Under the pieces are notes generated by a model. It worked only from the letters and a program-made list of their open reading frames with translations, was not told where the DNA came from and ran no database searches. 64,000 nucleotides of DNA from a virus (lineage: Duplodnaviria > Heunggongvirae > Uroviricota > Caudoviricetes): positions 34,885 through 98,884 of IMG/VR virus record IMGVR_UViG_2724679293_000007, one strand, 5' to 3'. Of this stretch, positions 5,194 through 46,813 are shown one piece after another. The number at the start of each line of letters is the position of its first letter. The stretch's first letter is position 1. A program made the position numbers and the translations under genes.

Positions 5194-5253
5194 AAGTTCC
5201 CTCCTACGTTGTCAGGAGGTAATGGTATGCAAAGTAACTTCTCATCTGGTTGT

Positions 5254-5538
5254 TCATAATTTGCCAATACATTCGTAAATCAAGTGAAAAACCCATATTT
5301 TGGTTATTCTTAATACAAAATGGCTATTCCAACTACATATCAAAAAAGCAACCACATCCAAAAATGAGTTTCCCCACTGAACTTCTGCAAGACAAAAACC
5401 AACAAAACCACCTTTTATGGCAAGCAGCCATGCTTCAAGCCAATGTAAAAAACATGGCTTATAAGCTCCACGCCTAACTCCAGTAAGAAATAAATAGGTT
5501 CCACTAATAATGGACATTAAAAAAATCAAAATCTGCAT
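5254..5538 (-). CDS. small hydrophobic membrane protein
   Basis: 94-aa ORF in an AT-rich stretch; strong RBS (GGGAGGAG) 4 nt before ATG; hydrophobic throughout. Confidence 0.45.
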   Translation of the reverse strand: MQILIFLMSIISGTYLFLTGVRRGAYKPCFLHWLEAWLLAIKGGFVGFCLAEVQWGNSFLDVVAFLICSWNSHFVLRITKIWVFHLIYECIGKL

Positions 5539-5659
5539 AAGCTCCTCCCGGATCTAACAAAAATCAAGCAGGAACCTATTCAGATTGTTATTTCTGTGCA
5601 TAACGCTTTGTTCTTTAAAATTCGCAGACTCATAAGAACAACGCATTAGAGTAAAAATC

Positions 5660-6220
5660 ATGCTGATCGGCTATGTACGCGTATCAACAAATGAACAAAA
5701 CACTGCTTTGCAACGAAATGCCCTTGAAAGCGCAGGATGTGAGCTAATTTTTGAGGATAAGGCGAGCGGCAAAAAGACTGAACGCCCTGGGCTAAAAAAG
5801 GTTTTGCGTATGCTTTCCAGAGGTGACACCCTGGTCGTATGGAAGTTAGATCGTCTTGGGCGCAGCATGCGTCACTTGGTTGTGCTGGTGGAAGAGCTGC
5901 GTGACAGAGGAATTAATTTCCGGAGTCTCACTGACTCTATCGACACCAGTACACCAATGGGGCGCTTTTTCTTTCACGTAATGGGGGCGCTGGCAGAAAT
6001 GGAACGTGAGCTTATCGTTGAACGTACACGCGCTGGACTTGATGCAGCTCGCGCAGAAGGTCGTATAGGTGGGCGTCGGCCTAAATACCAAGAAGAAACA
6101 TGGCAGCAAATGCGGCGATTGCTCGAGAAGGGCATCCCCCGTAAGCAGGTTGCAATCATCTATGATGTGGCTGTTTCCACGCTTTATAAGAAGTTTCCGG
6201 CGTCATCATTTCAATCCTAA
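5660..6220 (+). CDS. cin: Cin-type serine DNA invertase (Hin/Gin/Pin/Cin family)
   Basis: 186 aa; N-terminal [13 protein letters not shown] with catalytic Ser, resolvase core, C-terminal HTH; immediately followed by a cix-like site and the inverted repeats. Confidence 0.95.
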
Positions 6221-6237
6221 ACCTTGGTTTAAGAGAA
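6212..6237. other. cixL-like crossover site (26 bp, imperfect dyad around central TT)
   Basis: caatcctaaacc-tt-ggtttaagagaa overlaps the cin stop; the right half matches the hix/gix/cix half-site family (TTCTCTTAAACC on the other strand). Confidence 0.7.
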
Positions 6238-6804
6238 CTTGGCACAAGCGGTGAAAAGATCCCCCTGTTGAGCACGGCTAACACATGGAGCGCACGCCAG
6301 ACTTTCAACGGTGGGATCACCGGGGCGCTGGCGGGGAACGCCGACACCGCGACGAAATTAAAAACAGCCAGAAACATTAATGGCGTCAGGTTCGATGGTT
6401 CGGCTGACATTAATATCAATACTCTGGTATCTCGCGGTCGCGTAACGGCCCTGGAGGCGAATGCACAGGGAACATCCGGGATTCAGCTGTATGAGGCATA
6501 CAACAATGGCTACCCTTCCCCCTATGGCAATGTGCTTCACCTTAAAGGTGCCACCGCTGCTGGCGAAGGTGAGTTATTCATTGGCTGGAGTGGCACGAGC
6601 GGTGCCCATGCGCCCGTACATATCCGTTCGCGGCGGGATACTGATTCTGCCAACTGGTCTGAATGGGCGCAGGTCTATACGTCAAAAGATTCAATTCCCG
6701 GCGTCAATGCCAAAGGGAATCAGGACACCTCTGGTAATGCGGCTACAGCGACCAAGTTGCAGACAGCATGTACTATCAATGGCGTCTCGTTTGATGGTTC
6801 TAAA
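6226..6804. repeat. left inverted repeat of the invertible segment (~579 bp)
   Basis: Reverse-complement near-identity with 11087..11665; the track ORFs 6461..6832(+) and 11074..11430(-) translate identically over ~116 aa. Confidence 0.85.
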
Positions 6805-7884
6805 GATATTGAACTTAACCCACGGTCTATAGGCACAATCAACTCCACAACAATGTCTTTTAGTGGTGGTGCAGGATGGTTCAAGCTGGCAACTGTAACC
6901 ATGCCGCAGGCAAGTTCTGTTGTTTCAATTACGTTGATTGGTGGCGCGGGATTTAACGTGGGGTCACCTCAACAGGCAGGTATATCTGAACTTGTTTTGC
7001 GTGCAGGTAACGGTAATCCGAAGGGGATTACTGGTGCTTTATGGCAGCGCACATCGGCAGGGTTTACAAATTTTGCGTGGGTCAATACTTCTGGTGACAC
7101 TTACGATATTTACGTTGCTATTGGAAATTATGCGACTGGTGTAAATATTCAATGGGATTATACCAGTAATGCCAGCGTAACGATTCATACTTCACCAGCA
7201 TATTCTGCTAATAAGCCGGAAGGATTAACGGACGGTTCTGTTTATTCGCTGTATATTTCGCCGCATGAACTTTATCCGGTTGGCGCACCGATCCCTTGGC
7301 CATCAGATACCGTTCCGTCTGGTTATGCCCTGATGCAGGGGCAGACTTTTGACAAATCTGCATACCCGAAACTTGCAGCCGCTTATCCGTCAGGTGCGAT
7401 CCCTGATATGCGTAGCTGGACGATTAAGGGCAAGCCCGCCAGTGGTCGTGCAGTATTGTCTCAGGAACAGGACGGCATTAAATCGCACACCCACAGCGCC
7501 AGTGCATCCAGTACGGATTTGGGGACGAAAACCACATCGTCGTTTGATTACGGTACTAAAACGACCAGTTCATTTGATTACGGCACAAAAACTACGAATA
7601 GCGCTGGAAATCATTCACACAATATACCTGTTGGTCACACTGGCGCGGGGAATGGTGTATCAGCCGGTTATAACGCTGCGTTAGGTACTGGTACCACGTC
7701 GAGCGCAGGAGGGCATGCTCACAATGTATATATCGGTGCCCATAACCACACTATCGGCATTGGTGCTCATGCCCATTCTGTCATTATTGGTCCCCACGGA
7801 CACACCATCACCGTTAACGCTACGGGTAACGAAGAAAACACCGTAAAAAACATCGCATTTAACTATATTGTGAGGCTTGCATAA
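6226..7884 (+). CDS. alternative tail-fibre C-terminal cassette Sv' (repeat-encoded common part plus variable end); not fused to the constant S part in this orientation
   Basis: ORF 6268..7884; its first ~179 aa are identical to an internal stretch of the 1003-aa fibre ORF; distal part is Gly/His-rich with short repeats; no upstream promoter or constant region in this orientation. Confidence 0.8.
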
Positions 7885-8462
7885 TGACATTCAGAATGAG
7901 TGAACAATCACGGACCATAAAAATTTATAATCTACTGGCTGGAACCAATGAGTTTATTGGTGAAGGTGATGCATACATTCCACCTCATACAGGTCTGCCT
8001 GCAAACAGTACCGATATTGCCCCGCCAGATATTCCGGCTGGCTTCGTGGCCGTTTTCAACAGTGATGAGGCATCGTGGAATCTCGTTGAAGACCATCGGG
8101 GAAAAACCGTCTATGACGTGGCTTCCGGCGACGCGTTATTTATTTCTGAACTTGGCCCATTACCGGAAAATGTCACCTGGTTATCCCCGGAAGGGGAGTT
8201 TCAGAAGTGGAACGGCACAGCCTGGGTGAAAGATGCAGAAGCAGAAAAACTGTTCCGGATCCGGAAGGCGGAAGAAACAAAAAACAGCCTGATGCAGATG
8301 GCCAGTGAGCATATTGCGCCACTTCAGGATGCCGTAGATTTGGATATTGCGACGGAGGAAGAGGCATCGTTACTGACTGCATGGAAGACATATCGGGTAT
8401 TGTTGAATCGTGTTGATACAGCAGTAGCAGCGGATGTTGAGTGGCCAGTCGCCCCGCAATAA
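7884..8462 (+). CDS. tail fibre assembly chaperone U'
   Basis: 192-aa ORF with ATG overlapping the Sv' stop; position and size typical of the U/U' chaperone. Confidence 0.8.
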
Positions 8463-8467
8463 AAAGA

Positions 8468-8497
8468 TAAAGCCATCGATAGAAATATTGATGGCTT
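8468..8497. terminator. bidirectional hairpin between the convergent U' and acyltransferase genes
   Basis: aaagccatc-N12-gatggcttt with a T-rich tract on either strand. Confidence 0.45.
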
Positions 8498-8505
8498 TAT
8501 GTACT

Positions 8506-9078
8506 CTATTTATACAATACAACACCGCTCTTTTTAGTAATATATGTGCAGTTCGATGGTATATCTTTATTTATAAAAGACATTGCACCTATTTTTACAT
8601 TATCCCCAATTTTACGTGATAATCCAATGATGCAACAATTAGCTCCGATATCAACGTTATTACCAATTTTTACTCTTGAACCAGGCATGTCACCATCTAT
8701 CTGTCCAATGGTAGTATTCTGCCGTAACACCAGATTTTCACCAGCATCAACAGCAAAATGAACAACAATTCCAGCATGATGGGGAATTGTTAACCCTTTT
8801 CCAATATTTGCGCCCAATCCAATTTCACAACCAAATTTGTTAATTATTTTACTGTTTAACTTTTTGGCTGCTTTCTTATGTAATTTATTACCATTAATAT
8901 GCATTTCATTAGCCAATCTCCACCAGAAAAGAAAATTCCGATTGCGCTGCCTCTTCTCTCTTAATAGTCGCCAAACATCCATTTTTTCACGCCTGATGAC
9001 TTCAGCCATCCAATAGCTCAATAGAGCTTTTGAATTCCCAAAGATGACAAAGTGAATAGCTATTAAGTAACATAACAT
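8506..9078 (-). CDS. hexapeptide-repeat (left-handed beta-helix) acyltransferase, serine/sugar O-acetyltransferase-like; start uncertain (M1, M24 or M33)
   Basis: Imperfect hexapeptide repeats ...IGLGANIGKGLTIPHHAGIVVHFAVDAGENLVL...IGNNVDIGANCCIIGL...IGDNVKIGAMSFI...; markedly AT-rich with a ~490 bp AT-rich leader. Confidence 0.8.
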   Translation of the reverse strand: MLCYLIAIHFVIFGNSKALLSYWMAEVIRREKMDVWRLLREKRQRNRNFLFWWRLANEMHINGNKLHKKAAKKLNSKIINKFGCEIGLGANIGKGLTIPHHAGIVVHFAVDAGENLVLRQNTTIGQIDGDMPGSRVKIGNNVDIGANCCIIGLSRKIGDNVKIGAMSFINKDIPSNCTYITKKSGVVLYK

Positions 9079-9566
9079 ATTGCAATTGCCTATATTTTTG
9101 GTTTCTATGGTTATATATCGACATTATAATTAAAACAATAAGCATCAGTGTGTTACTGCGTTCCTGCTAAACTAAACCAACGCACAATGTAAACACAAAT
9201 ATTAATTTTAAACTGAGCACTAAAGGGATGTCAATATTGTATTGATAATAAGTTGCAAGATTGCCACTACTTTCTATATTTTGGGATGCAATAATTTATA
9301 TTTTATCTATTCAGTGTTTCTTTGGGCTTATTAAGGATGTCATTATTAATTTATGGCTTGCCATTTCTATACATATCTATTAAAAATTTTGATTTGTCTA
9401 TTGAAAATAGATTTAATTGATTGGTTTAATTTTTACATGACGCTCTTTAATATAACTTCAGGTATATTAAAGCACATGCATTATATCCAGAGAAAATCAA
9501 CAAAATTGTTAGCCCTTATTTGTTGGGCTTATAGATATTAATTAAGGCCCGATCCCGGGCCTTTCC

Positions 9567-10100
9567 TCATTCCGGTTTTTCTGGAAACGTTACTGGCAGG
9601 ATGGAGGTATCTGTAGATTCGACTTTCTGCGCATATAGCATCCACTCGGTTAATTTCTGTTTATTCTCATCGGAAATGATGCCCAGCCGTAGCTGTGAGT
9701 CCCACAGTTGGGTTTTATCCCTGACAAGTTGCAACAGGCTTTGCTTTTCATTCTCTGCCTGCTGCCTCTGTTCTTCCTCGGTGTAAGTTCGCTTTATCAC
9801 TACGCCATCTTTGAACATCCATTTACCCGAAATATCAGCCCGGCGATTTGCTGTAATATCAGGTAATTCAACGACGCTTGCGCCTTCCGGATTAATTGCT
9901 GAAACATCCTTTTCAATACAAATAATAACGCCGTTACGGTCATAGACCATTTTCAATGTGTCTGGCTGGAAATTCTTTTGTTCCTCATACCAGTTTTTTC
10001 CATCATCTGAATAAAGCCATTTGATGTTAAATTGCTTTGTTAGCTGGTATTGCTCTTTTGTTTTAGGGTTGCCAGCAGTAATTTTTTTTAAGTGCATCAT
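9567..10100 (-). CDS. tail fibre assembly chaperone U
   Basis: 177-aa ORF starting 2 nt after the fibre gene stop. Confidence 0.85.
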   Translation of the reverse strand: MMHLKKITAGNPKTKEQYQLTKQFNIKWLYSDDGKNWYEEQKNFQPDTLKMVYDRNGVIICIEKDVSAINPEGASVVELPDITANRRADISGKWMFKDGVVIKRTYTEEEQRQQAENEKQSLLQLVRDKTQLWDSQLRLGIISDENKQKLTEWMLYAQKVESTDTSILPVTFPEKPE

Positions 10101-10102
10101 CG

Positions 10103-13027
10103 TTAAATACTCCCCGCGTTATACCACGTCCCATTAATGCAATACTGAATTGGCCTTGCCTGAGTTGTATCAATTAATTCATCACGGTTTCCGTTAACTG
10201 AACCCGTAACGACATAACCTGACCTGTCAGACCAGCCGGGACCATTCCATGTCTGAACAGATGACAGACCGCCCAGGCGAATACCTGTAATAAACCTTGA
10301 GTTACATTCTGCCTGCGTATATGCACCAACATCCCCCGCAGAGGGTTTGCGGGTTGTGGTATAAAACTCTGACCAGTTAGCTTCAAAGCCATAACCATCA
10401 CGCGCTGAACGATAAAAGATACCGCCGTTCTTATAATTCACGCGGAACTGTACAGCAGGGCAACTCCCCGCATTCATATTAAAGTGGAGGATTAATGTCG
10501 ATGCACCACTGGTATCTGCATCATAAACACCGCTATTCCAGTTCCAGCCAACAGCTTTATCATTTGCAACCCTGCTTCCTGTTTGCCCTAAAGCAAATGC
10601 AGGCTGCTGGTTTTTCGTATTGTAGTCTCTTCGCCAGCCAGGAGCATAAGCATCACCATGATTAATATAAGTGAATTGAGCGTTAGTGATTCCGCCGCCG
10701 CTGGACGTACTCGGAGTAGTAACGCGTATGGTCATTGCGCCGCGAGTGCCAATAACTTCCACCACAGCACCTGCAAGACAAATATTTCCGCAACCTGTAT
10801 CTGTAATGACCTTATTATTTGCATAAGCCCATGAGCCTTTGCACATCCAGTAAGGATGGTTAAATGCCCCCTGACTCTCCAGCCACGAAATAAATTGCGC
10901 AGTTGTCCAGACCTGACTATCGCCACCAATATCCACCCATGCGCTATATGCGCGGCAGGCACCAATATTTTTGGTGAAGGTATCTTTTCCCGGAATATCT
11001 GCGCCGTTCTGGTTTTTCTGTAATGCTCCTGCGGCTAATTCTACGGTTTGCTCAAGATTTAAATCTTCCGCCGTTAGCTCAATGTTTTTAGAACCATCAA
11101 ACGAGACGCCATTGATAGTACATGCTGTCTGCAACTTGGTCGCTGTAGCCGCATTACCAGAGGTGTCCTGATTCCCTTTGGCATTGACGCCGGGAATTGA
11201 ATCTTTTGACGTATAGACCTGCGCCCATTCAGACCAGTTGGCAGAATCAGTATCCCGCCGCGAACGGATATGTACGGGCGCATGGGCACCGCTCGTGCCA
11301 CTCCAGCCAATGAATAACTCACCTTCGCCAGCAGCGGTGGCACCTTTAAGGTGAAGCACATTGCCATAGGGGGAAGGGTAGCCATTGTTGTATGCCTCAT
11401 ACAGCTGAATCCCGGATGTTCCCTGTGCATTCGCCTCCAGGGCCGTTACGCGACCGCGAGATACCAGAGTATTGATATTAATGTCAGCCGAACCATCGAA
11501 CCTGACGCCATTAATGTTTCTGGCTGTTTTTAATTTCGTCGCGGTGTCGGCGTTCCCCGCCAGCGCCCCGGTGATCCCGCCGTTGAAAGTCTGGCGCGCA
11601 CTCCATGTGTTAGCCGTGCTCAACAGGGGGATCTTTTCACCGCTGGTACCGAGTTCTCTTAAACCAAGGTATTGGATAACGGCTAGTGTGCTTGTTTTAG
11701 CCAGAATATCGCGACCGACTGACGTTAAATCAGTCTGCGCTACCGTATCCTTACCGGTGAAATAAGGCAGTTTGTTTGCACCAGTCGCAAGGCCAGCGAG
11801 CGCGGTTAAAGTTGCATCCAGAGGCTGTTTGCCTGCCAGCGCATTTGTCATTGTTGTCGCAAAGTTCGGGTCATTGCCAAGTGCTGCGGCAAGCTCATTC
11901 AGGGTATCAAGAGCTTCTGGTGATGAACCAACCAATGCGGATATGGCAGCTCTTACATAAGCGGTCGTAGCAATCTGCGTATTATTTGTGCCCTGTGCGG
12001 CGGTCGGCGCAGTAGGGACACCCGTTAATGCAGGGCTTGCCAAAGGCGCTTTGAGAGCCAAGGCATTGTTGATAGTTGTGCTGAAATTCTGGTCGTTATT
12101 GATCGCAGCCGCTATTTCTTTCAGCGTATCCAGTGTGCCAGGCGCACCGTTGATAAGTGCAGTTATAGCTGCCTTAACAAAGGCTGTATTTGCGATCTGC
12201 GTGCTGTTTGTACCTTGCGCTGCCGTCGGCGCGGTTGGCGTTCCTGTCAGACTCGGGCTTTCTATTGGCGCTTTGGTATCAGCAAGATCTTTTACAGACT
12301 TAACGGCTTTAGGGGTCGCCGCCATTGTTTCGCTGTCGCTGTTAGTTTCGCTACTGAGCTGAACTAATCCCTTTTGCGTTGTGCTTGCATCCTGCGCCGT
12401 ATACTTGCTTTTTGCCAGATCGTAGGCTTTTTTAACCGCCAGCGAACTTGCAGCAACATCACTTCTGGTACTGGTTACAGAGTCTGAAATATCAATGCCG
12501 ATCGTGCGGTTAATACGCTCGGATGTATCAATCATCTCCTGGGTAATGGCAGATACGCCAGCAGGGATATTCACCGTACAAACAAGCAGTTCCCCATCTC
12601 CCAACTGATATGAATCGGTATAGGTTCTGGTAACAAATTCAGCCGCATGAATATGTGACGCTGTATTAACCTGATAGGTATCCCCTCCAAGGAGATATCT
12701 TCCCTTCAGCACAATTGCATATTTCTTACCTGCGCTAAGTGCAAGAGAAATATCCTTACGATGCTGAATAGTTACCTGGTAGAATTCACCAATATCAACT
12801 GACGCAGCGCCAGCAGTTTTATCACCATCCACTGAGGTGATTAACAGGTTCATCCCACCGCCAGGCTTAGGTAAGAAACCGGCATAAAATCCCGGGTCAA
12901 CAATCCCCCTGAATTTTCGGTTTAGCGCGGCTGACAGATATGGTTCGTGGTATTGCACATCAGCCACCAGAGCCAACGACTCGGGTGATGGGTAAGTAAC
13001 CGATGTAACAACTGTAACGTCATTCAT
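10103..13027 (-). CDS. tail fibre S (constant N-terminal part fused across cixR and the right repeat to the Sv variable end); start taken at the second in-frame ATG
   Basis: Track ORF 10103..13114; the ATG at 13027 has an AAGGA RBS and avoids a 76-nt overlap with the upstream gene; Ala/Thr-rich repeats typical of fibres. Confidence 0.9.
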   Translation of the reverse strand: MNDVTVVTSVTYPSPESLALVADVQYHEPYLSAALNRKFRGIVDPGFYAGFLPKPGGGMNLLITSVDGDKTAGAASVDIGEFYQVTIQHRKDISLALSAGKKYAIVLKGRYLLGGDTYQVNTASHIHAAEFVTRTYTDSYQLGDGELLVCTVNIPAGVSAITQEMIDTSERINRTIGIDISDSVTSTRSDVAASSLAVKKAYDLAKSKYTAQDASTTQKGLVQLSSETNSDSETMAATPKAVKSVKDLADTKAPIESPSLTGTPTAPTAAQGTNSTQIANTAFVKAAITALINGAPGTLDTLKEIAAAINNDQNFSTTINNALALKAPLASPALTGVPTAPTAAQGTNNTQIATTAYVRAAISALVGSSPEALDTLNELAAALGNDPNFATTMTNALAGKQPLDATLTALAGLATGANKLPYFTGKDTVAQTDLTSVGRDILAKTSTLAVIQYLGLRELGTSGEKIPLLSTANTWSARQTFNGGITGALAGNADTATKLKTARNINGVRFDGSADININTLVSRGRVTALEANAQGTSGIQLYEAYNNGYPSPYGNVLHLKGATAAGEGELFIGWSGTSGAHAPVHIRSRRDTDSANWSEWAQVYTSKDSIPGVNAKGNQDTSGNAATATKLQTACTINGVSFDGSKNIELTAEDLNLEQTVELAAGALQKNQNGADIPGKDTFTKNIGACRAYSAWVDIGGDSQVWTTAQFISWLESQGAFNHPYWMCKGSWAYANNKVITDTGCGNICLAGAVVEVIGTRGAMTIRVTTPSTSSGGGITNAQFTYINHGDAYAPGWRRDYNTKNQQPAFALGQTGSRVANDKAVGWNWNSGVYDADTSGASTLILHFNMNAGSCPAVQFRVNYKNGGIFYRSARDGYGFEANWSEFYTTTRKPSAGDVGAYTQAECNSRFITGIRLGGLSSVQTWNGPGWSDRSGYVVTGSVNGNRDELIDTTQARPIQYCINGTWYNAGSI
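11087..11665. repeat. right inverted repeat of the invertible segment
   Basis: Reverse complement of 6226..6804; identity ends at the ...GATGGTTCTAAA junction. Confidence 0.85.
11654..11679. other. cixR-like crossover site
   Basis: ttctcttaaacc-aa-ggtattggataa; the homology between the two repeat copies begins here. Confidence 0.7.
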
Positions 13028-13038
13028 CAAGCATATCC

Positions 13039-13473
13039 TTATGCTGTAGTCGTGTTTATGGCCATAACTGCGGTATATGTTTTGCCCACATACAGCGAGT
13101 CTTCCTGGACACAAATAATGGCGATTGGCTTGTTCTCGTTATCCAGTACAACCAGAGTGTTGAATGGGTAGTTTTTCCCTTCCTGCAACTGGCTTTGATC
13201 AAGGTCCATTCGGACAGTAATTATCCCACCTGAGTAGGTTGGCACGAGGTTGATGGTGCAAAATTGACTGGTTAGTTCTGCCAGATCGAAAGCCTTTGGC
13301 AGTTCTCCAATCTCATAAGTGCCATCTCCTTTCTTAGTAACCAGCGAACTGGTACCGAAAACGGCCTTGCTGATTAAAAATCGAGAGCCTTTGTTAATGG
13401 ACGATTCAGCGCGCCGCTGATAGTAATAGTCCAACAACTGACTCTTATAGAGGTTTGTTGAGACGTCAGACAT
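13039..13473 (-). CDS. tail-fibre-associated protein (R-like)
   Basis: 144-aa ORF immediately upstream of S; name by synteny. Confidence 0.6.
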   Translation of the reverse strand: MSDVSTNLYKSQLLDYYYQRRAESSINKGSRFLISKAVFGTSSLVTKKGDGTYEIGELPKAFDLAELTSQFCTINLVPTYSGGIITVRMDLDQSQLQEGKNYPFNTLVVLDNENKPIAIICVQEDSLYVGKTYTAVMAINTTTA

Positions 13474-13551
13474 GATTTTCCCTAATCAATGTTGTGAAGC
13501 CTCATTGTAAGATAAGTAACTTGTCACCCCGCCCTGCGGACGGGGTGATTG

Positions 13552-24044: not shown

Positions 24045-24170
24045 TTTTTTTAGCTTCATATGCTACATTAACTTGCTTGCGTGCTAATGCATTTTCGGTT
24101 TATCCTAAACAGGCATCTTAGTAAAACGGATGCCGGGATTGGAACCCCGGATAATGCAAAAGGCGACACA

Positions 24171-24192
24171 GACGCCAAAAGCGTCTTTTTTT
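24171..24192 (+). terminator. rho-independent terminator/attenuator in the immI leader
   Basis: gacgccaaaagcgtc followed by TTTTTTT. Confidence 0.45.
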
Positions 24193-24199
24193 GTGTCAT

Positions 24200-24340
24200 G
24201 CCATCGCACAGCCATACGTAGCACATAGCTCCGAGATCAATGGTAGTGCTGGCTGGGCTGCCGAAAGGCAGGCCGGTTCCCTTTTGCGCCGGTAGTTCCA
24301 ACCCAGTCAGTGCTACCGCCATTGAGATTGGAACCTCACG
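24200..24340 (+). ncRNA. immI leader with c4-type antisense repressor RNA candidate
   Basis: Non-coding leader upstream of icd with mutually complementary segments (gtagtgctggctggg ... cccagtcagtgctac), as expected for the c4 RNA and its target sites; exact ends not determinable here. Confidence 0.35.
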
Positions 24341-27774: not shown

Positions 27775-27897
27775 TACAATCGTTGCGGGTGCTTGAGGCT
27801 ATCTGCTTCAGGCATGACCCGAAAAGCAGATAGAAGAAAGCCCCAGATAACATTACGCGTCCTGCAAGACGCTTAACATTAATCTGAGGCCATATCT

Positions 27898-28104
27898 ATG
27901 CTTAGCATACGTAGATTAGCCTCTTACCGACCAAAAGGTCAAGGAGAAGCAGGCTATGAAGCAGCAAAAAGCGATGTTAATCGCTCTGATCGTCATCTGT
28001 TTAACCGTCATTGTGACGGCACTGGTAACGAGGAAAGACCTCTGCGAGGTACGAATCCGAACCGGCCAGACGGAGGTCACTGTCTTCACAGCCTACGAAT
28101 CTGA
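27898..28104 (+). CDS. mok-like overlapping frame of the hok locus
   Basis: 68-aa ORF overlapping hok in another frame, as in hok/mok/sok loci. Confidence 0.4.
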   Translation: MLSIRRLASYRPKGQGEAGYEAAKSDVNRSDRHLFNRHCDGTGNEERPLRGTNPNRPDGGHCLHSLRI

Positions 28105-33368: not shown

Positions 33369-35096
33369 TTACTCAGAGTCACCGGCATCAATCGTGTCGC
33401 CGCTTATGAAGTTAAGCCCGCCTTTTTTGGCCATTGTCAGCGTTACACGAGTGAAGTAATCAGCGCCGTTGCGTGGGTGCATATCGTTGATAGCCGAACC
33501 CCACAGTGTGGTACGGTTGACCAGCGCCGGAGTGGTCGGATGCTGGAACGGGATAGCCGGGACAGCATCACCAGTCACGAAGCCTGCTTTACCCGGATTT
33601 TCATCACGGACGTAGCACAGCACATCCATCGAGCTGAACTGAATGTTCTCTGTCGTTAAGTTCTTACAAATACCAGCAGGTACTTCGTACACTTTCACGT
33701 TACCGAACAGGGTACCGATGTAGTGAACATACGGAGTCTGGATATAGTCTTCGGCTGGCTGGAAGAAATCCTTCGGCAACTGTTTGAAGAAAGATGCTGC
33801 ATCAGCACCAGCAAACATCCCCATCGCACCAGAAGATTTAACGCGCTCAATAATGTCGCGATATACAGTCTGGAATTTGCCACGAATGATGGTTGCCCAT
33901 ACATCAAAGGACTGGTTAACCGGCAGAGCGATGTCAAAGGTGTCGGTCGCAAGAGTACGCCAGATCATGATGCGAAGACGCAGCATATCCTGTTCATGAG
34001 ACAGGTATTCCTTCAGGGTGCGGAACTGTAGGGAACCCAGGTCCAGACCAAATTCACGCTGTGCTTCATACGCCGCCTGTACCGTGTGCTCAGCCGCGAT
34101 AACGAACTGGCTTGGGAACAGGGTGTATTTCTTCATTTCGTGGTTGATCAGCGGGATCAGCTCAGGAGCGGCTTCAATATTGATTTCCGTCTCAATTGCG
34201 ATCTCAGTGCCTTTATCCGGCGCTTTGGAGAACGACAGGGCAATCTGACCAATGTTGTAGTTCAGAGAGCAGGTAACAGTGATTTGCTCACCAGCAGCAT
34301 TAGTAAACGAGTGAAGTAGGCTGCCGGAACCGTTATCAACAACAGACTTAATACGGTTAACGTAGATGTTAGTGCGACCTTTTCGGATTGGTACATTCTG
34401 GCCTTCGAAGTCTTCCATCTTGAAGGTTGCGGTTTTGCTGGTGCCATCGGAGCTTGCCACCAGCACATAGCGGCGGCGTAACTGGCTGTACACACCGACG
34501 GATTGCATGTCCAGAACATCACCAGCAGCATAAGAACCAAAAGAGGAACCTGCCACGTTAAAGACTTCATAGATGTCGGACTGGTCACGCGTAACCGGAA
34601 TGAAGGTACACGCATCAGCGGTAGCTGCCCCCAACTGAACAGGCAGGATCATCGCGAGGAATAAAGGCAGACGCATAACACCGTCAGAAACGCTCATCAT
34701 CTCTGCTGCGACGGATTCCAGCATCGCTTTATTAGTGGCATCCATGCTATTGCGGGTGGACTCAATCAGGCAGTTTTCCAGCGTCTGGTGGCAGGAGGCC
34801 AGAATTTCCGGACGCGGCATAGATTTATGTGCTGCGGCGTAGTCAGCCAGTGCACTTGCCCACGCGGTAGCAATTTGAGCGGTGGCATTATCAGAGATAC
34901 CCGCAAAAATTGGGTCTTTACGTGCAGCTTCAAGGATAGATGCGGCACGCGCGGCATCATCTTTGATGAATTGGTTATCAGTACCGAACTGTGCTGTACT
35001 TGCCCAGCCAAGAACGGCTTTAGAGCGTTTTGCGATATCTGCAATACGATTCTGGTATTCGCGTAAGTTACTCAAGTTACTCTTCCTTAAACACAA
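33369..35096 (-). CDS. major head protein (P1 gene 23 position); start codon uncertain (TTG in track)
   Basis: 575-aa ORF adjacent to parS as in P1; followed by a hairpin. Confidence 0.55.
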   Translation of the reverse strand: MCLRKSNLSNLREYQNRIADIAKRSKAVLGWASTAQFGTDNQFIKDDAARAASILEAARKDPIFAGISDNATAQIATAWASALADYAAAHKSMPRPEILASCHQTLENCLIESTRNSMDATNKAMLESVAAEMMSVSDGVMRLPLFLAMILPVQLGAATADACTFIPVTRDQSDIYEVFNVAGSSFGSYAAGDVLDMQSVGVYSQLRRRYVLVASSDGTSKTATFKMEDFEGQNVPIRKGRTNIYVNRIKSVVDNGSGSLLHSFTNAAGEQITVTCSLNYNIGQIALSFSKAPDKGTEIAIETEINIEAAPELIPLINHEMKKYTLFPSQFVIAAEHTVQAAYEAQREFGLDLGSLQFRTLKEYLSHEQDMLRLRIMIWRTLATDTFDIALPVNQSFDVWATIIRGKFQTVYRDIIERVKSSGAMGMFAGADAASFFKQLPKDFFQPAEDYIQTPYVHYIGTLFGNVKVYEVPAGICKNLTTENIQFSSMDVLCYVRDENPGKAGFVTGDAVPAIPFQHPTTPALVNRTTLWGSAINDMHPRNGADYFTRVTLTMAKKGGLNFISGDTIDAGDSE

Positions 35097-46737: not shown

Positions 46738-46813
46738 GGCCCTTTAGCTCAGTGGTTAGAGCTGGCGACTCATAATCGCACGGTCACCGGTTCAAGTCCG
46801 GTAGGGGCCACCA
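46738..46813 (+). tRNA. tRNA with anticodon CAU, ileX-like (tRNA-Ile2; Met not excluded)
   Basis: Cloverleaf folded by hand: acceptor GGCCCTT/AGGGGCC, D-arm GCTC-AGTGGTTA-GAGC, anticodon loop CTCATAA, T-arm ACCGG-TTCAAGT-CCGGT, encoded CCA; near-identical to E. coli ileX as recalled. Confidence 0.9.

Follow-up and report, generated by a model that had tools for sequence, protein, structure and literature searches.

A gene for an acetyltransferase of the left-handed beta-helix (LbH, hexapeptide-repeat) fold, here called sat, was found inside the invertible tail-fibre segment of a P1-like phage-plasmid (8506..9078, minus strand). The DNA analysed, referred to as the window, is a stretch of 64,000 nucleotides from IMG/VR record IMGVR_UViG_2724679293_000007 (positions 34,885 to 98,884), and its closest match was E. 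coli NCCP15648 plasmid NZ_CP009051, with an identity of 99.3-99.5%. We consider it probable that sat is a self-contained moron, in which the gene is accompanied by a promoter-like site and a terminator hairpin, and that its product O-acetylates a sugar-containing envelope precursor. Comparisons with P1 and with P2-like prophages suggest that the gene came to lie there through the exchange of one arm of the invertible segment.

The single 190-aa open reading frame (ORF) of sat lies in the 1104-bp gap between two convergent chaperone genes with Caudo_TAP matches (7884-8462 on the plus strand and 9567-10100 on the minus strand). The GC content is 0.27-0.36 across 8350-9550 versus 0.45-0.50 on the flanks, in keeping with the original prediction, which had placed the ORF in an AT-rich insert of ~1.1 kb at this point. 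Every copy examined had all 190 codons intact, even on plasmids that diverge by 5-7%. The ratio of nonsynonymous to synonymous substitution rates (dN/dS) was 0.11-0.19 against homologues differing by 2-40%, and on this evidence sat is not a chance ORF. The same ratio and the intact codons, together with the conservation of the family across genera and its invariant catalytic residues, make it very unlikely that sat is a functionless, decaying hitch-hiker held between two selected fibre cassettes, an explanation that would account for an arrival by linkage, for the weak ribosome-binding site in the P1 version, and for the lack of a phenotype found in the literature.

The assignment to the LbH fold was obtained from several kinds of search. 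The Hexapep model of Pfam matched with an E-value of 2.6e-5 and 24.1 bits, just below its 27-bit cut-off, and 22 LbH families of NCBIfam matched at E<0.01, the top scores (with cut-offs) being 72.8 (150) for EpsC, 61.4 (210.65) for cysE (TIGR01172) and 56-56.7 (194.65-196) for WcaB. The family profile matched serine acetyltransferase structures best among PDB entries (1e-24). The AlphaFold2 model, built from an alignment with 35 homologues, had a pLDDT of 85.8 and showed five N-terminal helices followed by a beta-helix; when it was searched with Foldseek, the top PDB matches were again serine acetyltransferases (probability 1.0, TM about 0.7). The sat product is thus an LbH acetyltransferase, as had been predicted. 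The repeats were thought to fill the C-terminal two thirds of the protein, but the helical N-terminal domain extends to residue 82 in the model, so the LbH part is nearer the C-terminal half. In PHROGs, the protein belongs to phrog_2154 (E 5e-85), a family without an assigned function.

The N-terminal extension is retained in homologues down to 57% identity, and this 80-residue helical domain contains an invariant arginine (R54) in a well-conserved stretch of the WWRLANE type. The acceptor-binding loops vary across the family. One variant, P0009, which is 68% identical overall (locus L090, 5001-5573), has a C-terminal 34 aa identical to that of the window protein. There seems to be a recombination breakpoint inside sat (window 8506-8610), the exchanged unit being the 3' end of sat, the terminator and tfa.

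Since the closest sequence and structure matches are of the CysE type, and the gene is labelled "serine acetyltransferase" in RefSeq and GenBank records, a genuine serine O-acetyltransferase was considered. As an auxiliary metabolic gene, it would supply O-acetylserine and so boost or deregulate cysteine synthesis in the lysogen. The catalytic pair is kept: H100, invariant in the family alignments (35 homologues), aligns with CysE H158, and E85 aligns with CysE D143, at a position where the family members inspected have either E or D. In E. coli CysE, serine is bound by D92, D157, R192 and H193. The counterpart of D157 in sat is P99, which varies among family members. Conservation is also lacking in the R192/H193 loop, and the D92 region is absent together with most of the N-terminal domain. 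No Pfam match to SATase_N was found in the protein (190 aa versus 273 aa in CysE), and the CysK-binding C-terminal tail, which ends in Ile in CysE, is missing from sat, whose C-terminus reads ...GVVLYK. The TIGR01172 score given above falls far below its cut-off, as does that for PRK11132 (CysE), at 37 bits versus 397. sat is also nearer to WcaB (36% identity over 109 aa, 1e-16) than to CysE (32% over 106 aa, 1e-9). Because sat is without the CysE serine-binding residues, the RefSeq label is probably a misnomer or over-annotation. A true serine acetyltransferase appears quite unlikely on these comparisons, and a sugar-type enzyme, which the original prediction had favoured, is the more likely of the two.

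The AT-rich leader of ~490 bp and the hairpins that had been predicted on both flanks of the insert were both found. The leader measures 488 nt (9079-9566), and on the sat strand it has only two ORFs of at least 20 aa, both straddling its ends (9002..9145 and 9538..9645). Its AT-rich non-coding part (9079..9539, minus strand; 27-33% GC) occurred in P1-like plasmids only, 65 in all and never on a chromosome. A 'distant' blastn search of 5426 complete E. coli genomes, the set on which all genome counts here are based, gave no homologue outside P1-like plasmids. No relatives were detected by blastn at word size 7 or by six-frame tblastn among all fetched loci and the window. An Rfam scan of 8300-9800 at E<=1 likewise found nothing in the leader, the sole match at gathering score being IS009, within tfa. 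A decayed membrane-protein gene was considered as the origin of the leader and dropped for want of support, the homology searches having come back empty.

Within the leader lies a candidate sigma70 promoter for sat (TTGACA-18-TAAAAT; 9205..9234, minus strand), which is an 11/12 consensus match only; both hexamers are identical in phage JL22 and in plasmid pO111_2. In the P2 context, sat is preceded by an independent promoter-like site, and its GTG start by the ribosome-binding sequence AAGGAG. No P1 late-promoter box of the Lpa type was found in the sat leader. Downstream of sat, the hairpin at 8467..8500 is predicted to act as a bidirectional terminator between the convergent tfa and sat genes (15-bp stem, -17 to -20 kcal/mol, z -5.4/-6.4), and the U-tract AUCUUUUUAUU follows it on the sat strand. 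The other hairpin (9544..9563; 8-bp stem, -15 to -19 kcal/mol) is GC-rich and is P1's own U/U' intergenic hairpin. It lies where the swapped arm described below meets P1-type sequence on the right, has a weak U-tract on the minus strand, and was not called by the terminator scan.

Alignment with P1 showed that window 9540-11677 corresponds to U' and Sv' at 90.8% identity. Homology ends at 6815 and restarts at 9540, with 6816-9539 unmatched. Since the P1 match is absent there, we read the arm at 6816-9539 as a replacement of the whole Sv-U arm of P1, and not as an insertion into the P1 C segment. The earlier description of sat as cargo therefore holds in part: sat is an extra gene in a functional-looking Cin segment, but the arm as a whole was swapped. 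The chaperone names also had to be changed. The gene at 9567-10100, which had been called U, is P1 U' by homology, and the one at 7884-8462, which had been called U', is a tfa of the P2-prophage type.

The likely source of the arm was found in P2-like prophages, where the gene order is H and tfa, followed by sat, gpU, tape measure, tube and sheath on the opposite strand (H, tfa -> <- sat <- gpU <- tape measure <- tube <- sheath). Window 7271-9070 aligned with the P2-like prophage CP061244 as one block of 94.3% identity, which comprises the fibre 3' end (7271-7884, 94%), tfa, the terminator and sat, and ends 8 nt inside the sat start. In strain E2865, copies of sat were present on both the chromosome and a plasmid. 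In the simplest history consistent with these alignments, the Sv-U arm of the C segment of a P1-like plasmid was exchanged for the fibre tip and tfa of a co-resident P2-like prophage. sat would have been carried along in the swap because it sits immediately behind tfa, and would hence have come to lie inside the invertible segment. The location of sat thus has an ordinary evolutionary explanation. The chromosome of NCTC9040, tried as an 'empty-site' relative, was uninformative, as it carries an IS1 insertion and a deletion after tfa. Some P2-like prophages (L090-L092; 5937-6605, plus strand) have a class I methyltransferase gene between truncated and full copies of tfa, adjoining sat; this gene is a second passenger at the tfa/sat junction.

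The sequence around sat has the layout of a Cin/Gin-type segment: a serine invertase gene stands next to it, the inverted repeats contain cix sites, and each of the two alternative fibre ends is followed by its own chaperone gene. The invertase gene cin (5660..6220, plus strand; Resolvase and HTH_7 matches) encodes a protein 99.5% identical to P1 Cin. The left arm of the inverted repeat (6214..6815), which contains cixL and aligns with the P1 cixL region, and the right arm (11076..11677), which contains cixR, are 602 nt each and 98% complementary. They enclose 4260 nt versus 3074 nt between the arms of P1, where U' and U are 28 bp apart, and the prediction that the unique part is larger than in P1 was therefore correct. 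In the window orientation, the variable fibre end of the P2-prophage type (Sv; 6226..7884, plus strand, with an ORF at 6268-7884) is silent, being unjoined to the constant part of S, and is followed by tfa (7884..8462, plus strand; Caudo_TAP E 3.5e-42). The S gene as now assembled (10103..13114, minus strand, from its ORF and the P1 alignment) consists of Sc and an end of the P1 Sv' type, and the U' homologue (9567..10100, minus strand; Caudo_TAP E 4.7e-36) is the chaperone currently expressed with it. Upstream of R-S-U lies the -22 box of the P1 late promoter LPs, AAGTTACTT (13514..13522, minus strand), an exact match to the annotated P1 box, with ATCTTACAAT coming next.

Both orientations of the segment were observed. 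Compared with the flanking sequence, all of 6214-11677 is inverted in JL22. Sixteen of the 65 plasmid carriers have both arms, 5 in the window orientation and 11 flipped. Two plasmids of 93,854 bp each, from PEC209 (NZ_JBXSFD010000004.1) and C21 (NZ_CP052881.1), carry the segment in opposite orientations, and this pair is a natural snapshot of Cin inversion. The orientation of sat relative to the fixed Sc and late promoter thus flips, as had been proposed, and in the window sat is co-directional with S and U, also as stated.

In about 49 of the 65 carriers, the leader is not adjoined by an intact second arm. These carriers, among them O157 and O111 plasmids of Shiga toxin-producing E. coli (STEC) and the phage Ro157c2YLVW, appear to be locked by cin deletion. 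In four such records that were inspected, cin and at least part of the other arm were lost, and sat, facing the late operon, was intact. A common deletion that joins a 237-nt U' stub to lydA was seen in pO111_2 (L004), Ro157c2YLVW (L103) and pF1273-3 (L104). In these P1-like elements of STEC, Sv', cin and lydC are gone and the P2-type fibre is locked on.

The original prediction had further suggested that expression of sat could be coupled to the host-range state. Under this explanation, transcription from LPs through R-S-U would leak past the hairpin at 9544-9563 into sat, and in the flipped state sat would lie behind cin and the silent arm, head-on to the late operon, so that the cell surface would track the fibre being made. 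The co-directional arrangement in the window, the weak U-tract of the hairpin after U on that strand and its failure to be called by the terminator scan, and the near-identical plasmids in both orientations (5 versus 11, e.g. PEC209/C21) are consistent with such read-through. However, the promoter-like site and the terminator hairpin of sat are both inside the segment and flip along with the gene, so inversion never parts the promoter-like site from sat, and only read-through from LPs could differ between the two states. Late expression just ahead of lysis would also be ill-suited to lysogenic conversion, and the leader has no late box of the Lpa type. The apparently locked carriers retain an intact sat convergent to the late operon, one of them being the phage record Ro157c2YLVW, and the main home of the gene, in 495 genomes, is non-invertible; coupling to inversion therefore cannot be essential. 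What stands of the proposal is possible read-through, and Cin-coupled expression is unlikely as the explanation of the locus. A more elaborate form, in which sat is a receptor-masking enzyme paired with its fibre tip and Cin toggles late read-through so that surface acetylation is tied to virion host range, is very unlikely.

The distribution of sat agrees with a main home in P2-like prophages. The junction tfa-> <-sat <-gpU was present in 495 of the 5426 genomes (about 9%). Genes R and S of the P1 type were present in 470, and the sat arm with the AT-rich leader in 65, all on plasmids, which represents about 14% of P1-like elements. Carriers include P1-like plasmids of O157, O111, O26 and O103 STEC. 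Alignments and searches showed that sat is missing from P1 and P7, as had been expected, and it is absent from RCS47, SJ46 and about 86% of the P1-like elements of E. coli as well.

In IMG/VR, where E. coli prophages that are nearly identical to one another make up most of the loci sampled, a tfa-like gene lay within 400 bp of sat homologues in 61 of the 69 loci with enough flank, always convergent, down to 43% protein identity. The same convergent tfa/sat geometry was found in Citrobacter phage phiNP and Hafnia phage yong2. A rule that the gene is always next to tfa fails outside phage copies, where the 80 species-representative loci were mixed: about 8 of them had a tfa-like match, 6 directly downstream and convergent. 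Some distant homologues adjoin NeuB-type or glycosyltransferase family 2 (GT2) genes, which fits a role in sugar pathways. No Cin-like invertase turned up around the homologues at other sites, in 80 species loci and 80 viral contigs, and the invertible context is specific to P1-like elements. In another HP1/P2-like E. coli prophage (L094-L097, 4662-4803), a homologue of 57% identity closely follows a hok/gef-type toxin gene, past the tail-fibre genes at the end of the prophage.

For promoter use, acceptor substrate and biological benefit, we infer the following from these data. In the lysogen, sat would be transcribed from its own sigma70-type promoter, whichever way the segment is oriented. 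The product would be an LbH O-acetyltransferase of the CysE/WcaB class that works in the cytoplasm with acetyl-CoA as donor, and its acceptor may be an O-antigen, colanic acid or enterobacterial common antigen-type intermediate, or a nucleotide sugar. The altered cell surface would then result in lysogenic conversion or in masking of phage receptors.

Several observations weigh against this proposal of a self-contained moron. The promoter is a consensus match only, silencing of the AT-rich leader by H-NS is possible, and the ribosome-binding site is weak in the P1 version. The protein falls below every curated family cut-off in NCBIfam, and the proposal names no specific acceptor. About 72 of the 80 species-level homologues are not beside phage genes and stand in mixed chromosomal settings, and the position beside tfa may be a general moron hot spot with no functional link to the fibre. 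A PADLOC scan of the protein returned 0 defence families at E<=0.1, and no sat phenotype was found in the literature on defence at P2-like hot spots, on CP-933T or on tail-fibre-linked acetyltransferases.

A defence or counter-defence factor was also considered, acting on an acceptor other than an envelope sugar, such as a nucleotide signal, a component of the phage, or a toxin or antibiotic of the small-molecule kind. Defence genes are known at sites beside phage tail genes, and the variable acceptor-binding loops would be in line with an acceptor of another kind. The PADLOC result tells against it, as do the absence of xenobiotic-type LbH enzymes from the closest matches and the occurrence of sat as a single gene with no partner. 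We regard such a factor as rather improbable, and continue to favour an enzyme that acts on envelope sugars.

The locus was compared with known systems. With the P1 C and Mu G segments it shares cin, 0.6-kb inverted repeats with cix, two fibre ends with chaperones, Sc and LPs outside the segment, and the occurrence of both orientations. It differs from them in that one arm has a tip and tfa of the P2-prophage type, in a fifth gene that is unrelated to fibre assembly and has a 460-nt leader, and in that many relatives of the window appear to be cin-less and fixed. The unique part is 4.26 kb here versus 3.07 kb in P1. Morons are known beside tail-fibre genes, e.g. P2 Z/fun and lambda lom and bor. 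Like these, sat is an AT-rich accessory gene that stands beside fibre genes where a late operon ends and is missing from close relatives. It has a predicted terminator of its own, and it would be transcribed independently, from the candidate promoter; unlike them, its product is an enzyme of PHROG 2154, the family without an assigned function.

WcaB and CysE belong to the same LbH sub-class and likewise have a short helical N-domain before the beta-helix and a His/acid pair. sat differs from both in lying on phage DNA, outside the wca cluster and the cys locus, and in the R54/WWRLANE-type stretch of its N-domain, which neither enzyme has. Oac of Sf6 and OafA, of the acyltransferase-3 family, are encoded on phages or islands and acetylate O-antigen, with changes in serotype and in phage receptors. 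These are integral membrane proteins that act outside the cytoplasm, whereas sat is a soluble LbH protein and would need cytoplasmic precursors.

The closest worked example for the proposed mechanism is NeuO of prophage CUS-3 in E. coli K1. This LbH O-acetyltransferase modifies the capsule of K1 cells and so reduces their infection by K1 phages (PMC3046976, PMC13001214). Both are prophage cargo and acetyl-CoA-dependent LbH enzymes with a catalytic His, and the expression of NeuO is switchable. NeuO, however, belongs to the MAT/GAT/OatWY branch, and it was not among the top 60 listed PDB matches of the sat profile, nor among the 39 matches of the single sequence. It switches by a heptanucleotide repeat in its coding region, whereas no tandem repeats that would allow a similar phase variation were found in 8400-9650. 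The phage that carries NeuO is P22-like, while the host phage of sat is a P1-like or P2-like myovirus.

Further observations were made on sequences next to sat and cin and elsewhere in the window. The 3' coding half of tfa (8227-8425, plus strand) gave a full-length match to Rfam IS009 with 192.7 bits (gathering score 117), and this model may describe conserved prophage tfa sequence with no separate small RNA. Other Rfam matches at gathering score in the window were isrK and the C4 antisense RNA, both in the P1 immunity region, as well as a tRNA and the antitoxin RNA sok (24113-24323, 27787-27961, 46738-46810). The region 5251-5606 (the lydC region between the LPdar/lydA side and cin) was unmatched to P1 or JL22 by blastn, while its flanks matched both. 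The ORF at 5254-5538 (minus strand) in this region looks like a distinct allele of a small holin-like gene.

The gene has been noticed before. The paper on phage JL22 remarked on it and called the reason for its presence "still unknown", with no mention of the invertible context or of the P2-prophage origin (PMC9603915). A recent study of Klebsiella reported that, depending on the K-locus, 5-30% of prophages carried putative acetyltransferases (PMC13123978). The literature found on a sat phenotype consisted of the JL22 remark and general statements on prophage acetyltransferases. sat is already annotated in many database records, and it is a modest variant of known arrangements, with no new mechanism.

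The locus is a clear case of the exchange of a fibre cassette between P2-like prophages and P1-like plasmids in the same strains, and it shows that invertible host-range segments can acquire passengers. If expression were coupled to inversion, a DNA-inversion switch would govern not just the fibre but a cargo enzyme too. Should the enzyme indeed modify an envelope polysaccharide, PHROG 2154 would prove to be a widespread factor of lysogenic conversion that has gone unrecognised, with possible effects on serology, phage typing and phage therapy.

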